Source: Minisyncoccota bacterium
Lineage (GTDB): Bacteria; Patescibacteriota; Minisyncoccia; Phycocordibacterales; UBA6065
Direction of reading: 5' to 3'
NCBI GenBank assembly: GCA_041661645.1
Contig: JBAZUA010000001.1
Location: forward strand, 192,189 to 256,188
Length of the DNA: 64,000 nucleotides
The notes under the pieces are model-generated. The model worked only from the letters and a program-made list of their open reading frames with translations, made no database searches and had not been told where the DNA came from. This document shows positions 2,378-47,613 of this stretch, in pieces. How positions within the stretch are numbered: position 1 is the stretch's first letter; each line of letters opens with the position of its first letter. The translations under genes and the position numbers were made by a program.

Positions 2378-3013
2378 TCAATCTTGGACAATGAGGCCAA
2401 AAATCGAAGAGAGATAGAGTGCCTGTTCGATGCTGACGGTCAGGCCCTGGATCGAATCCTTGTGTAGGGAAATGTTCTCAATATTCGAACCCTTCAGGCT
2501 TACCCCTGTCAGCTTGGCCTGCGAGAACTGCGAATCTTTCAAATTGCAGTTCTGGAACAAGACATCTTTCAACTCCGCTCCTTGGAAGTCGGATTCTCCC
2601 AAGTCACAGTTTATAAATGCGACACTTTTCATTTTGGCGAACCTCAGAGACAGGCCGTTGCCCTTGGACTCCCTTATAACCACGTCCCTCATATTCGCCC
2701 GGGTAAGATAAAGGCCCTGCAAGCGGGTATTCTCAATTTCCACTCTTTCGAGAAAGATATTGTCGGCTTTCACGCCCGTGAAGTTGCTCTTCTTGATTAT
2801 CGAGTCGGTAATCCTCATCTCTGAAATCGTGGAAGACTGCAGCGAAAGCTTGTCTGCGGCGACTTCGTTGAAATCTAATTCATCAAGCTTCTTGCCTTCC
2901 AAGGACGCCTCACTGAGCGACGCGGATTCGACGCGGATTGCTAGTGATTCGCTATCGATAGTAGCCTCGGTATCTGTGACCGATTTATTCAATACCGGCT
3001 TGCGAATTTCCAT
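2378..3013 (-). CDS. Pentapeptide-repeat protein
   Basis: Tandem A(D/N)LxX-type pentapeptide repeats run through most of the ORF (SLRFAKMKSVAFINCDLGESDFQGAELKDVLFQNCNLKDSQFSQAKLTGVSLKGSNIENISL). The ATG is at 3013 and a TTG at 3022 is also possible. Confidence 0.6.
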   Translation of the reverse strand: MEIRKPVLNKSVTDTEATIDSESLAIRVESASLSEASLEGKKLDELDFNEVAADKLSLQSSTISEMRITDSIIKKSNFTGVKADNIFLERVEIENTRLQGLYLTRANMRDVVIRESKGNGLSLRFAKMKSVAFINCDLGESDFQGAELKDVLFQNCNLKDSQFSQAKLTGVSLKGSNIENISLHKDSIQGLTVSIEQALYLSSIFGLIVQD

Positions 3014-3022
3014 ATTGGTCAA

Positions 3023-23788: not shown

Positions 23789-23834
23789 AGCGAGAATAGT
23801 AGCATAAAACCGGCCGAAGCCGGTTTTGATGTTG

Positions 23835-23917
23835 TGCGCCGAGAGGGACTCGAACCCCCGATGCCCAGTGGGCCGGAGATTTACAGTCTCCTGGAATAGC
23901 CGCTATCCGATCGGCGC
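23835..23917 (-). tRNA. tRNA-Tyr (anticodon GUA), long variable arm
   Basis: Perfect acceptor stem GCGCCGA/TCGGCGC. Anticodon stem-loop GGAGA-CTGTAAA-TCTCC. T-arm GGGGG-TTCGAGT-CCCTC. Confidence 0.75.
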
Positions 23918-43610: not shown

Positions 43611-44006
43611 TTAATTTATATCAGCGGGATAAGGACCATCGACGGGAGCGGCCACATCATCAGATGGCACGGTATCAATAGGGGCGACATAATCCGTCGT
43701 CGTGGCCTGTGAAGTCGTGGAAACCTTGACACCGTCATCCTTCGGAAAGAACTGATCCCAGGAACCCCCTATCTTCGAGCCAATGTCCTTCAGATTATTG
43801 TTCTGGGGCGTATTGATTTCGAAGGAGAGGCCCCCGTTCTCGAGCCTGAAGACGAGCGCAACTACCCAAAAGAGGGCGATAACGAGAGTGGCTGTAGCGG
43901 ATGCGCCGAATATGAAGCGAAGCTTCTCCGCGTCTGACTTATTCCTCAGCTTTTCTATGTGTTTGAACATTGCCTCTGTCGCGGGACGATTGCCCGCATG
44001 TCTCAT
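43611..44006 (-). CDS. Hypothetical membrane protein (one TM)
   Basis: 131 aa ORF with TM segment FIFGASATATLVIALFWVVALVF. The stop overlaps the start of the upstream gene. Confidence 0.4.
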   Translation of the reverse strand: MRHAGNRPATEAMFKHIEKLRNKSDAEKLRFIFGASATATLVIALFWVVALVFRLENGGLSFEINTPQNNNLKDIGSKIGGSWDQFFPKDDGVKVSTTSQATTTDYVAPIDTVPSDDVAAPVDGPYPADIN

Positions 44007-44635
44007 TACGCCTGCGCCTCGAGAACGACCACGTCCGCGTCCTTGCCATCGAGATCCTTCCTCTTGAGGGTCAATTTGTCCTGCGGCTTCTGGGCCTCCT
44101 CGCCCGCCTCCTTGAGAAAGGCCTTTATTGCCGCGGGGTCATCGCCAACAGGGATGATCAGCCTTGGCTCGAGCTTGACCGCGAGCTTGTAGGCGTCGCT
44201 TGGCGAGAGAGTGTCCCCCGCCGTTCCGACAGGGACGAAGAGCACGTCGATCTGCTCGATCTCCTCGTTCGCCTCGCCCGGGATGTCCTTGGTCGAGAGA
44301 GCCCCGAGGAAGCAGAGGTTCATGTTCTCGAGCTGCACCGTGTATATGGTGTTGATGAGGGGCTTGCCGCCGTGATTGGTCTCGGAGGAGAAGCCCTTGA
44401 TGAAGACATCCTTTATCTCGTATTCGCCAGGGCCGGTCACAGCGAAGGCCTCCTTTCCGCCGAATGACACCTGATCGACACCGTTAAGGTCGGCGTGATT
44501 GGCCGAGACGAGGGCAATGTCCGCGCCGAAGCGGCTCGACTTGAGCTTCGAGTCCTTTGATATCGGATTGACGGCAAGGGTGATGTCGCCAAACTGAACC
44601 TTGAAAAAATGACCGCCTTGATATGTGATTACCAT
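44006..44635 (-). CDS. MBL-fold metallo-hydrolase
   Basis: Conserved segments ITYQGGHFFKV, ALVSANHADLNG and VLFVPVGTAGDTLS match the metallo-beta-lactamase fold. The start was chosen at the internal ATG (MVITYQ). Confidence 0.55.
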   Translation of the reverse strand: MVITYQGGHFFKVQFGDITLAVNPISKDSKLKSSRFGADIALVSANHADLNGVDQVSFGGKEAFAVTGPGEYEIKDVFIKGFSSETNHGGKPLINTIYTVQLENMNLCFLGALSTKDIPGEANEEIEQIDVLFVPVGTAGDTLSPSDAYKLAVKLEPRLIIPVGDDPAAIKAFLKEAGEEAQKPQDKLTLKRKDLDGKDADVVVLEAQA

Positions 44636-44689
44636 GCGGGAAGTATAGAGCATTTCCGATTTTGTATCCAGATTGACAAGGGTTTTCCG

Positions 44690-45060
44690 AGTAGTAGCAT
44701 ACGGACCAAGGCCTAAGCTCCTTGGAAACAAAGAAAACTCGAATTCCTGGGCGTGAGCGCCCTCGAACAGGCCAAACCCGTCGTGCGGGCACGACGGGGG
44801 TTGCAGGACCTCAGCACAGGCCCATCTAGCGAACGGGTCCAGGGGCACCTAAGTAGCCTTTGTCCCAGCGCGAACGGGACAGGGGCGAATCCGGCAGACA
44901 ACCCCGCCACAAGTGTCCAACCGCACGCGTCGCAACGCGTGTACGAAGTGGCGACGGCGCTGCCAAGCCTAAATCCGACGAGCTTTTGCTGCATAGCCGC
45001 ACTCCTGCAGGGTGTGGCTATTTTGTTTGAGACATCCTCGTCACTTGCCAAACGAGCACG
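44690..45060. ncRNA. Candidate structured non-coding RNA (unassigned)
   Basis: An approximately 370-nt GC-rich non-coding stretch between divergent genes. It is packed with perfect hairpins: CCAAGG-ccuaagcu-CCUUGG, CCCGUCGU-gcgggc-ACGACGGG, ACGCG-ucgcaa-CGCGU, GUCCC-agcgcgaac-GGGAC. The ORFs in it are implausible. Confidence 0.3.
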
Positions 45061-45130
45061 CCTACTGCCTATGTCTATTTTTTATTTTCTCTTTATAGGT
45101 TTTCACTCCATCCCATAGCAAAATAAGCTC

Positions 45131-45547
45131 ATGCAGAGGAAGAACTCACCATCAAAACCATACGGCCAGCTCGCCACGAAAAGCGACGTGAGGGAAATTG
45201 TCACGGAAGTCATCGACAACTTTGCCATCATGATGAAACGCAGCTTCGACGACATCAACGATAGAATGGTGACAAAGGAAGAGTTCAACGAATTCAAGGC
45301 TGAAATGCATGAGTTCAAGGATGAGATGCATGAGTTCAAAACGAATATGCTTGAATTCAAAGACGGCACAGAACCAGCCCTATACAGCCTTCAAACGGAT
45401 ATGCTCGACGTCAAATCAAGACTAACAAAGGTAGAGACCGGACTGACGAACGTCGAAAACGGCGTCACATCCCTCACGGCGGCCGTGCGCAGCAACTGGC
45501 GTGATCACGAAGGTCGCATTACCAGACTCGAGGAGCGAGTCACCTGA
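45131..45547 (+). CDS. Coiled-coil repeat protein, paralog A
   Basis: N-terminal ATKSDVREIVTEV. Central EFKAEMHEFKDEMHEFKTNMLEFK repeats. C-terminal VRSNWRDHEGRITRLEERVT. Paralogous to 52296..52775. Confidence 0.5.
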   Translation: MQRKNSPSKPYGQLATKSDVREIVTEVIDNFAIMMKRSFDDINDRMVTKEEFNEFKAEMHEFKDEMHEFKTNMLEFKDGTEPALYSLQTDMLDVKSRLTKVETGLTNVENGVTSLTAAVRSNWRDHEGRITRLEERVT

Positions 45548-45667
45548 TTGAATGGGTCTATCGTGTAAAACCCTTTGCGGACATGGGTGATTTCCATATT
45601 TTGCACCCAGATTGACAGACCCCCTCATAAGAGTAGTCTTGTGAACAGGAAACCCAATGCTCATCAA

Positions 45668-46306
45668 ATGAATACCGTAACAGAATCAAACGAACTACAG
45701 GAAGTCAAATTCCTTAAACTGCAAATGACCAGACAGGCCGAACGGGCCAACAGCATGGTGGGGGAAATAAAAGACCTCTACCAAAAGCTGAGAACCGAGG
45801 AATGCCTAGAGGTCGAGATTACGGAAAAATACAACAAATCCGTGACGGCCCTCGTCATCGACGAAGCCGAACGCAGGGGCGTATCATTCTGCAGCCTCTG
45901 CGAAGAAGAAAGGCCGGCCTCGTCCATGGTCTGCGTGCTCTTCACGGGATCAAAGATCATAAGGATGGGAGACCACGGGACAGAGACAGAATATCTGAGG
46001 GACTTCTCCACGCCTCATCTGCTCTGCCCGACCTGCCTCGACACACACACCAAGAAAAGCGGCTGGATAGGACCATTCAACTCCATCGCCCAGGGTTCCG
46101 AGACGTTTTATCTCTGGCATACGGACAAGCGTTCGGACGGGCTTTACGCCCACGTCCTCGGATACAACAAGCTCGTGCCCGTAAAACCACCACAGGCGAT
46201 CCCGCCCGACAAGATAAACGAAAAGGCCTCGCAGTGGGGCCTTCCGACAACCATCGGGTTTCCCCACAGGAGACTTAATGAGCCCACGGAACGTGGCTGG
46301 GACTGA
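45668..46306 (+). CDS. Hypothetical protein with two CxxC pairs (possible zinc ribbon)
   Basis: CSLCEEE...CPTCLD. Start chosen at MNTVTESNEL. AT-richer than the core. A terminator follows at 46328-46365. Confidence 0.4.
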   Translation: MNTVTESNELQEVKFLKLQMTRQAERANSMVGEIKDLYQKLRTEECLEVEITEKYNKSVTALVIDEAERRGVSFCSLCEEERPASSMVCVLFTGSKIIRMGDHGTETEYLRDFSTPHLLCPTCLDTHTKKSGWIGPFNSIAQGSETFYLWHTDKRSDGLYAHVLGYNKLVPVKPPQAIPPDKINEKASQWGLPTTIGFPHRRLNEPTERGWD

Positions 46307-46365: not shown

Positions 46366-46521
46366 TTCACAAAAAGGACTTTACCGCGAGGCCCTTTCAT
46401 GCTAACCTCTTCCCTACCTGACTTTTCGTCAGTTTTTATTTTTCACCGGCTTCGGTAACCCTTTCTCAGGACCACTTGCAACGAGCATCGAGAGGAAGCA
46501 CCGAAACGGACCTTTAATATC

Positions 46522-47613
46522 ATGGCAGAAGAAATCAAGAAGGCGGAGCCGACCACGCTCATGGGCAAATTGCTCAATGACACGGCCACCCCACCAAATG
46601 TCGGCGACCTCATCGAGGGAACCGTCATCGCTATCGACAAGAAGGGCGTCTTCATAGACCTCCCCCCATTCGGTACCGGCATCATCTACGGACGCGAGTA
46701 CATCGTCGCCCGAGACGTCATCAAGAAGATCAACGTCGGCGACAAGGTCGCTGCGAAGATCGTCGATGCGTCAAACAAAGACGGCTATATCGAGCTTTCC
46801 CTCAAGGAGGCCCGACAGGCCCTCATCTGGACCGAGGCCGAGCTCGCCATCGTCGAGAAGAAGATCCTCGAGCTCCCTATCAAGGAGGCAAACAAGGGCG
46901 GACTCATCATCGAGTGGCAGGGCATCCAGGGATTCCTTCCCGCCTCCCAGCTCAAGCCCGAGCATTACCCACGCGTTCAGGACGGTGACAAGGATCGCAT
47001 CCTCGAGGAGCTCAAGAAGCTCGTCGGCACCAAGCTCGCCGTATCGATCATCGGCGCATTCCCCAAGGAAGGCAAGCTCATCTTCTCCGAGAAGAACTCT
47101 GAGCAGAAGGACAAGACCGAGCAGGTCGCCAAGTTCAAGGTCGGCGACGACGTTGAGGGAAAGGTCACCGGCATGGTTGACTTCGGAGTCTTCGTCAAGA
47201 TCGACGAGGGTCTCGAGGGTCTCGTTCACATCTCAGAGATTGACTGGGCACTCGTCGAGGATCCAAAGACCCGCTTCAAGGTAGGCGACAAGGTCAAGGT
47301 CCGCGTCATCGAGATCAAGGACGGCAAGGTCTCCCTCTCCATCAAGGCCCTCAAGCCAAACCCATGGGTAGAGGCGGGCAAGAAGTACAAGAAGGAGCAG
47401 ATCGTGAAGGGCGTCGTCATCAAGTTCAATCGACACGGCGCGCTCGCCTCGATCGAGGAAGGCATCGCGGGCCTCGTCCACGTTTCCGAATTCGGAACCG
47501 AGGAGAAGCTCCGACAGAACCTCGAGCTCGGCAAGACCTACAGCTTCAAGATCACCCTCTTCGATGCTGGCAGCCAGAAGATGACCCTTGCCTTCGCGGG
47601 AGAGAAGAAGTAA
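46522..47613 (+). CDS. rpsA: 30S ribosomal protein S1 (four S1 domains)
   Basis: Repeated S1/OB motifs (GDLIEGTVIAIDKKGVFIDL, GDDVEGKVTGMVDFGVFVKI, GDKVKVRVIEIKDGKVSLSI). Confidence 0.85.
   Translation: MAEEIKKAEPTTLMGKLLNDTATPPNVGDLIEGTVIAIDKKGVFIDLPPFGTGIIYGREYIVARDVIKKINVGDKVAAKIVDASNKDGYIELSLKEARQALIWTEAELAIVEKKILELPIKEANKGGLIIEWQGIQGFLPASQLKPEHYPRVQDGDKDRILEELKKLVGTKLAVSIIGAFPKEGKLIFSEKNSEQKDKTEQVAKFKVGDDVEGKVTGMVDFGVFVKIDEGLEGLVHISEIDWALVEDPKTRFKVGDKVKVRVIEIKDGKVSLSIKALKPNPWVEAGKKYKKEQIVKGVVIKFNRHGALASIEEGIAGLVHVSEFGTEEKLRQNLELGKTYSFKITLFDAGSQKMTLAFAGEKK

Follow-up and report, generated by a model that had tools for sequence, protein, structure and literature searches.

A 64,000-nucleotide stretch of a Minisyncoccota bacterium genome (contig JBAZUA010000001.1), referred to below as the window, carries a structured RNA gene between a gene for a metallo-β-lactamase (MBL)-fold hydrolase and an open reading frame (ORF) for a coiled-coil protein. 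As far as sequence analysis can go, the presence of a real structured RNA gene on the + strand within the non-coding region 44636-45130 is confirmed. It is probably a stand-alone gene, spanning about 44705-45029, for a structured RNA of ~325 nt that belongs to a family outside Rfam. An earlier note on this DNA had proposed a structured noncoding RNA at 44690-45060 and had left open whether it was RNase P RNA, transfer-messenger RNA (tmRNA), signal recognition particle (SRP) RNA, 6S RNA or another RNA. The proposal is borne out by a predicted promoter and terminator, by homologues and by covariation, although the transcript appears to be narrower than the range first given, and the identity that holds is the last one, another RNA.

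A non-coding locus with its own predicted transcription signals

The 495 nt between the MBL gene and the coiled-coil ORF contain chance ORFs only and are thus non-coding. The GC fraction is 0.62-0.63 at 44700-44999 and 0.45-0.53 on both flanks. The + strand folds with an energy of -140 kcal/mol (z = -2.74), which none of 100 shuffled sequences equals; the minus strand (z = -0.80) folds no better than its shuffles. Most indels between homologues have lengths not divisible by three (7 of 10, 13 of 16, 7 of 7, 2 of 2 and 13 of 14 in five homologue pairs), which also argues for a non-coding region. Two invariant G-U pairs at the base of one of the helices, helix B, would become C-A mismatches if read on the minus strand, so that only the + strand fits.

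The predicted promoter places the start of transcription at about 44705-44708. A TTGACA-16/17-TAGNNT arrangement precedes every homologue for which upstream sequence is available. At the other end, a strong intrinsic terminator is predicted 4-11 nt past the helix that closes the RNA, depending on the member. The tract directly 3' of its 12-bp stem (44993-45021) reads TTTTGTTTG; compensatory changes are found at 5 of 11 stem pairs across the homologues, and a U-tract follows the stem in all of them. Promoter and terminator lie on the + strand in every member, and in the window they delimit a predicted transcript with 62-63% GC. At the level of sequence prediction, both signals are conserved across the homologues in the manner of an independent RNA gene.

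Two loci argue further for independent transcription. In L086 the RNA occurs twice in tandem (L086a, 2198-2637; L086b, 2663-3019), each copy having its own TTGACA-N16/17-TAGNNT promoter and its own terminator; the first terminator runs into the second promoter, its U-tract overlapping the -35 box. The upstream copy, L086a, measures 440 nt and has diverged strongly in its 3' half (fold z = -3.3), and L086b is typical. In L094, a gene for a PemK-family toxin lies on the opposite strand between the RNA terminator and the coiled-coil gene (L094:8-130, 225-611).

Architecture of the RNA

The fold was derived with RNAalifold on the four closest members and, separately, from an anchor-based block alignment of all members that was fitted by hand. 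Both converge on a closing helix in two parts, A1 of 6 bp and A2 of 4 bp, that encloses five domains (hairpins F, B, C, D and E) and is followed by the terminator (Table 1). The closest-knit subgroup of sequences (group 1) has one extra, sixth hairpin.

Table 1. Features of the RNA locus and its surroundings; positions count from the first letter of the window, and RNA elements and signals are predictions
Feature	Positions	Strand	Details
MBL-fold hydrolase gene	44006-44635	-	Pfam Lactamase_B_3, E = 3.8e-22
Promoter-like site of the MBL gene	44670 to 44642	-	TGGATA-17-TATACT
Sigma-70-like promoter	44673-44700	+	TTGACA, 16 nt, TAGCAT; promoter scan, 10/12 matches
5' leader before the closing helix	44701-44714	+	contains CCAAGG; possible window-specific hairpin with 44720-44725
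5' strands of A1 and A2	44715-44725	+	AAGCUC and UUGG; pair with 44975-44985
Junction strand J1	44726-44743	+	AAACAAAGAAAACUCGAA; A-rich, conserved
Hairpin F	44744-44767	+	UUC-CU-GGGCG UGAG CGCCC-UC-GAA; 8/10 pair columns compensatory
Hairpin B	44770-44802	+	GGCC-AAA-CCCGUCGUG CGGG CACGACGGG-GGUU; conserved base; 5/9 pairs compensatory
Domain C	44806-44849	+	GG-A-CCUCA ... AGGGG-CA-CC; interior variable; 3/5 inner pairs compensatory
J4, domain D and J5	44850-44892	+	UAAGUA; GCCU ... GUCCC/GGGAC ... GGGC; GAAUCC
Domain E	44893-44964	+	base helix GGCAG/CUGCC; variable 62-nt arm; includes RNase P-like GCAGACAAC
Junction strand J6	44965-44974	+	AAGCCUAAAU
3' strands of A2 and A1	44975-44985	+	CCGA and GAGCUU
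Intrinsic terminator	44993-45029	+	terminator scan; 12-bp stem, then UUUGUUUG
Spacer before the coiled-coil ORF	45030-45130		~100 nt
Coiled-coil ORF	45131-45547	+	138 aa
243-aa ORF	45575-46306	+	two CxxC pairs
Structured leader of rpsA	~46430-46521		~75 nt
rpsA (ribosomal protein S1)	46522-47613		

Compensatory changes are seen at all 6 pairs of A1 and at 2 of the 4 pairs of A2. A1 is AAGCUC/GAGCUU, GUUCUC/GAGAAC, CCAGGG/CCC-UGG or UCGCCU/AGG-CGA, depending on the member, and the spacing between the 3' strands of A2 and A1 is 0-2 nt in all of them. The inner pairs of domain C likewise vary as UCUCG/CGAGA, UCGCG/CGCGA, CCCCU/AGGGG and CCUUG/CGAGG. For the outer helix of domain D, covariation was counted by hand at 5 of 7 pairs and automatically at 2 of 4 scorable pairs. 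The AGUA and GAAU sequences around helix D are conserved in all members, and AGUA on the 5' side together with GAA on the 3' side may form a G-bulge module of the loop E or sarcin-ricin type. The base helix of domain E is invariant except in L087, where it reads AGCAG/CUGCU, one compensatory change; the interior of the domain does not permit alignment between subgroups.

The most conserved nucleotides are those of the strands that join the helices, namely CAAAGAAAACUCGAA in J1, AGAGUA in J4, GAAUCC in J5 and AAGCCUA in J6, together with the bases of B (GGCC-AAA...GGUU) and E (GGCAG...CUGCC). The J1 sequence hardly varies in 6 of 7 full members and can still be recognised in L086a, and J6 differs only in L087 (AAGUCUA) and L090 (AAGCAUA). 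J1 and J3 are complementary, as are J2 and J6, but one supporting substitution or none was found, and tertiary helices are not claimed. J1 could also pair with the U-tract of the terminator or the coiled-coil leader, but this was rejected as trivial A/U complementarity that lacks covariation.

The four stems named in the earlier note are all present where it placed them, but they fare differently when compared with relatives. The 8-bp stem CCCGUCGU/ACGACGGG (44777/44791) is helix B, which is conserved with compensatory changes. GUCCC/GGGAC (44862/44876) is the inner hairpin of domain D, and here the compensatory conservation applies to the outer helix of that domain. ACGCG/CGCGU (44925-44940) exists as the tip of the variable E domain but is specific to the window. 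CCAAGG/CCUUGG (44706/44720) overlaps the covariation-supported A1 and A2, is not conserved in the group-1 homologues or in L001, and probably lies outside the native fold.

Covariation and conservation

Of the 63 pairs in the hand-fitted alignment, terminator included, 35 have compensatory changes on both sides; non-canonical cells number 17 of 475. An automated count was made on the same alignment, padded with N and with the terminator left out, using 500 shuffles and slid registers as controls. Across its 49 pairs, 95.7% of the cells are paired, compared with 78.0 ± 1.4% in the shuffles, none of which reaches the observed value, and at most 53% in slid registers. The pairs changed on both sides number 27, compared with 11.5 ± 2.3 in the shuffles (reached by 0 of 500) and at most 10 in slid registers. 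These figures strongly support a conserved fold but do not prove it.

DNA identity between the window and the other members is 54-57% for the RNA, 71-84% for the coiled-coil gene, 81-88% for the MBL gene and 89-92% for the S1 gene. Helix columns are 58-68% identical and the third codon positions of the MBL gene 61-67%. The helices thus drift at a roughly neutral, or synonymous, rate while their pairing is kept; the idea that they evolve faster than neutral was dropped for the same reason. The junction strands, by comparison, are 88-90% identical between the window and group 1. The junction is thus under sequence constraint, as would be expected if both the fold and the junction core of the RNA are important.

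Homologues and distribution

The MBL protein assigns the window to Candidatus Paceibacterota. Besides the window, seven distinct full-length homologues (L001, L085, L086a, L086b, L087, L089 and L090) and two partial ones (L082 and L094) were found, all within a tight clade of Paceibacterota, which belong to the ultra-small bacteria of the Candidate Phyla Radiation (CPR). Counting the window, there are eight distinct full-length copies from seven genomes of this one clade. A single-sequence nhmmer search of 80 MBL-anchored loci aligned the whole region for L001 only. A degenerate pattern scan of metagenome contigs returned L083, which is the window sequence itself, the true homologue L082, which is cut off at its 5' end, and two chance matches in coding DNA. 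The remaining copies came from contigs that encode homologues of the coiled-coil protein: L085, L086, L087 (the same as L088), L089, L090 (the same as L091), L096 (the same as L001) and L094, which holds only a 3' fragment of the RNA.

A profile search of 710 kb of collected sequence yielded no further copies, and three pattern scans of viral sequences and a blastn search of phages gave chance matches or nothing. A "mini" covariance model of 184 positions, in which the hairpin interiors are replaced by GAAA, regains the seven members from which it was built at 27-41 bits. In 510 kb, it found no other match better than E = 0.28 and did not match L086a; a marginal match in L029 was rejected, as it consisted of the terminator hairpin only.

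The RNA lies between the MBL gene and the coiled-coil gene, upstream of rpsA, in all cases but one, a partial copy whose contig begins within the RNA. The MBL proteins of the RNA-bearing genomes are 86-95% identical in amino acid sequence to that of the window. In relatives with an MBL identity of at most 81%, the RNA is absent from the site between MBL and rpsA, and in most relatives the MBL gene simply adjoins rpsA in divergent orientation with a gap of ~250 nt.

At this same site, L017 has a structured RNA of ~290 nt (L017:2725-3019, minus strand of the locus; fold z = -4.6) with the same TTGACA promoter context and its own terminator, and with no coiled-coil gene. It has in common with the family a J1-like GAAGAAAGAUGACAAUAUCGAUUCC and a ...GGAGC-GAAU... 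element; GGCC-AAA...GGUU is missing. Neither the profile search nor the mini covariance model nor Rfam matched it, and it may be a different RNA or a very divergent one.

Comparison with known RNA families

At the gathering score, Rfam 15 identified only 10 tRNAs in the 64-kb window, which agrees with the observation in the earlier note that no other RNase P RNA, tmRNA or SRP RNA is identifiable there. ARAGORN called 11 tRNAs and no tmRNA, the additional one being a tRNA-Tyr(GTA) at 23834-23917 on the minus strand. With permissive filters and a threshold of E ≤ 10, the region 44550-45200 gave three meaningless matches (a trypanosome small nucleolar RNA, a microRNA and a small RNA; E = 2.7-8.3). 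Seventeen related loci gave nothing at the gathering score. At E ≤ 10, five homologue-bearing loci gave nothing relevant, the only matches within the RNA genes being to the terminator hairpin; altogether, the searches at this threshold covered eight homologues in six loci. None of the four named identities was thus recovered by the cmscan comparison that the earlier note had recommended. Its second check, covariation in homologous regions, came out in favour of helix B and the outer helix of D, and not of ACGCG/CGCGU or CCAAGG/CCUUGG.

RNase P RNA deserves a closer look, since the earlier note had pointed to a segment, GCAGACAACCCCGCC, that resembles one strand of the P4 helix. Within the fold, this segment supplies the 5' strand of hairpin E (GGCAG/CUGCC), after which comes a variable insert; GGCAGA.AAC alone is conserved. 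Neither RF00010 nor RF00011, the models of type A and type B RNase P RNA, matches the RNA at the gathering score or at E ≤ 10. RNase P RNA has its P4 3' strand between P2' and P1'. A P4 5' strand GGAAAGUCC... would need its 3' partner at that place, where this RNA has only 0-2 nt, and a manual search found no P4-complementary 3' strand. The position of P3, between closing helix and A-rich strand, has no hairpin either. The A-rich J1 strand AAGAAAACUCG does resemble the J3/4-P4 sequence of Escherichia coli, AGGAAAGUCCG, from which it differs by transitions only, but no complementary partner strand for J1 was found. The two RNAs are alike in their size (~330 nt), in being GC-rich relative to their surroundings, in having their 5' and 3' ends in closing helices followed by a conserved A-rich strand, and in the many hairpins around a conserved core. 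However, this RNA lacks the P4 pseudoknot, P3 and the conserved regions of the specificity domain, and it is restricted to one clade, duplicated in tandem in one genome and fast-evolving.

The other housekeeping RNAs were rejected on similar grounds. The RNA lacks the tRNA-like end and the conserved tag frame of tmRNA, its 3' end being an intrinsic terminator; a UAA that follows GCC in the window is not conserved in L001. SRP RNA and 6S RNA gave no match at E ≤ 10, and the fold is a multi-branch junction rather than a rod, with covariation in support of six helices around the junction.

A more general likeness is to the orphan RNAs raiA, OLE, ROOL, GOLLD and HEARO, which are also stand-alone, lineage-restricted and intricately folded, and which were also found by comparative analysis before their function. 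The present RNA resembles none of the Rfam models of these families and is known from fewer than 10 genomes so far, and it is smaller than OLE, ROOL and GOLLD. Its neighbourhood is different as well, with no IscB, tRNA or prophage context and none of the OLE-associated proteins.

Proposed function and alternative explanations

Transcription of the RNA would begin at its own sigma-70-type promoter and stop at its own intrinsic terminator. The 5' and 3' parts of the RNA would pair as A1 and A2, from which the five hairpin domains would radiate. The helices would serve as a scaffold for the junction strands, which would form the functional core, either as a binding pocket or as a contact surface for protein or RNA. 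The RNA would then act in trans as a folded molecule and not as a switch on the downstream mRNA. It is probably also the founding member of an undescribed class of RNAs of ~325 nt with a six-helix junction, confined to one lineage of Paceibacterota, in which the junction core would be catalytic or bind a ligand or protein, and which may work together with the adjacent coiled-coil protein.

Several points weigh against this reading. In every locus with known downstream sequence, the RNA precedes the coiled-coil gene in the same orientation, so that a role in cis is possible. The RNA-bearing genomes form one tight clade, and the conserved gene order may be simply inherited. No function can be assigned to either neighbouring gene. 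Both transcription signals are sequence predictions, and little is known of promoters in the CPR. Fitting the alignment to the structure by hand inflates the pair counts, for which the slid and shuffled controls correct only in part. Finally, there are only eight distinct full-length sequences, four of which are close relatives.

The position directly upstream of the coiled-coil gene would also suit a cis-regulatory leader, in which the six-helix junction would bind a ligand or factor and the terminator would decide on read-through into that gene. The short distance between closing helix and terminator fits this idea, and so does a resemblance to large-junction riboswitches such as the flavin mononucleotide (FMN) or RFN element: this too is a six-helix junction, with a closing helix, five hairpins and conserved junction nucleotides, followed after a few nt by a terminator and then by a gene on the same strand. 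However, this RNA is about twice the size of FMN-type aptamers and matches no riboswitch model, and no metabolic role is annotated for the gene that follows. For the 5' arm of the terminator, the best upstream pairing falls in B, F or C according to the homologue and is never as strong as the terminator, so that there is no conserved antiterminator. The gene that follows L086a is a second copy of the RNA with its own promoter, in L094 the opposite-strand PemK gene intervenes, and in general about 100 nt of separately conserved sequence separate the terminator from the coiled-coil ORF. In addition, more distant homologues of the coiled-coil protein (39-44% identity to that of the window) are found in other contexts that lack the RNA. 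A leader, although the strongest of the rival readings, is therefore considered unlikely. A quite improbable alternative is that the RNA is one half of an accessory module with the fast-evolving coiled-coil protein, whether a ribonucleoprotein or a pair of the antitoxin or conflict type. This alternative also assumes a stand-alone transcript; it overlaps with the explanation preferred here and differs only in naming the partner. RNA and coiled-coil gene do co-occur, and both are absent from the more distant relatives in which MBL abuts rpsA; the site is a hot spot for insertions, including the PemK toxin gene of L094, and the coiled-coil gene evolves faster than its flanks. The order of RNA gene, terminator and protein gene resembles that of type III toxin-antitoxin loci. 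As in ToxIN-like systems, promoter, RNA, terminator and protein gene lie on one strand in a variable, fast-evolving region. On the other hand, the RNA has a single complex fold and none of the short tandem repeats of ToxI, and the protein is a coiled coil with no match to a nuclease family. PADLOC, PHROGs, Pfam and NCBIfam suggest no function for it, and no copy of the RNA was found in the phage or viral collections. The co-occurrence, seen within one tight clade, is explained by shared descent.

Scarcely any probability is given to a highly divergent housekeeping RNA, of the RNase P, tmRNA, SRP or 6S type, that standard models would miss in CPR bacteria. The size and GC content would fit RNase P RNA or tmRNA, the window contains no other such RNA, and the A-rich strand has the resemblance described above. 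Against this stand the negative searches with Rfam and ARAGORN, the missing partner for the P4-like segment, the variable sequence after GGCAGA.AAC and the branched fold. The diverged tandem copies of L086 also speak against it, as does the synonymous rate of helix change among genomes that share 92% identity in their S1 genes. The locus could also be a non-functional, GC-rich spacer or the remnant of a decayed gene, in which the hairpins are incidental, and the narrow distribution, the variable region and an overall identity between members of only about 55% would agree with this. It is nonetheless very improbable, given that pairing is kept in 96% of the cells despite the turnover of helix sequences, that the junction strands are far better conserved than the third codon positions of the flanking genes, and that promoter and terminator are conserved.

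Full-text searches of a paper library yielded no description of such an RNA in CPR bacteria and almost nothing on lineage-specific structured RNAs in these organisms; a recent survey of noncoding RNAs in 50 bacterial genomes does not mention CPR lineages. The CPR, or Patescibacteria, account for a large part of bacterial diversity. In complexity the RNA, with its conserved junction and six covarying helices, is on par with a ribozyme or large riboswitch, and RNAs of such complexity, such as RNase P, OLE, raiA and HEARO, have proved to have unusual biochemistry. If the family extends beyond a few genomes, it would provide a new target for structural and functional work on RNA in organisms with minimal genomes. 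Its narrow known distribution and the lack of a functional clue make its importance moderate.

Neighbouring genes and the insertion site

The proteins encoded next to the RNA had no informative matches in Pfam, PADLOC, PHROGs or NCBIfam. An AlphaFold model of the coiled-coil protein consists of two long helices (mean predicted confidence score, pLDDT, 78.9), with no fold match in the PDB. Its family (the window protein and P0001-P0013) has from none to about eight short repeats of the EM.EFK type, and the length of the long helix varies with them, between 92 and 208 aa.

The ~100 nt between the RNA terminator and the start codon of the coiled-coil gene read CACUUGCCAAAC ... UGUCU.UUUUUUAUUUUC.CUUUAUAGGUUUU and are more conserved among the homologues than most of the RNA. 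They include a weak hairpin followed by a T-run and may represent the gene's own promoter or leader. On the other side, the promoter-like site of the MBL gene stands back-to-back with the RNA promoter. A block within the 44642-44700 region, AGAUUGACA, is kept even in relatives with other inserts (L004, L006, L011 and L017).

Between the coiled-coil gene and rpsA, the window has an ORF of 243 aa whose two CxxC pairs suggest that the protein might bind zinc. It had no meaningful match in Pfam, PHROGs, NCBIfam or PADLOC and is absent from the equivalent position in L085, L086, L087 and L089. Other relatives carry different inserts between MBL and rpsA: an ORF of 195 aa in L002, one of 132 aa in L004 and a hydrophobic one of 60 aa in L011. 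The variety of these inserts marks the site as an insertion hot spot.

A second, conserved structured element, of ~75 nt, lies immediately upstream of the S1 start codon in many Paceibacterota and was seen in L003, L005, L006, L007, L010, L011, L013, L014, L016, L017 and L087 as well as in the window. Its outer helix is CYYCGAAAUU/AAUUUCRGG (UUCGGU/ACCGAA in the window) and its inner helix CUYUYY/RRARAG, and a UAACCC sequence is invariant. Rfam gave no match to it. RNAalifold predicts 15 pairs, 9 of them with compensatory changes, and the element may be an autoregulatory leader of rpsA.

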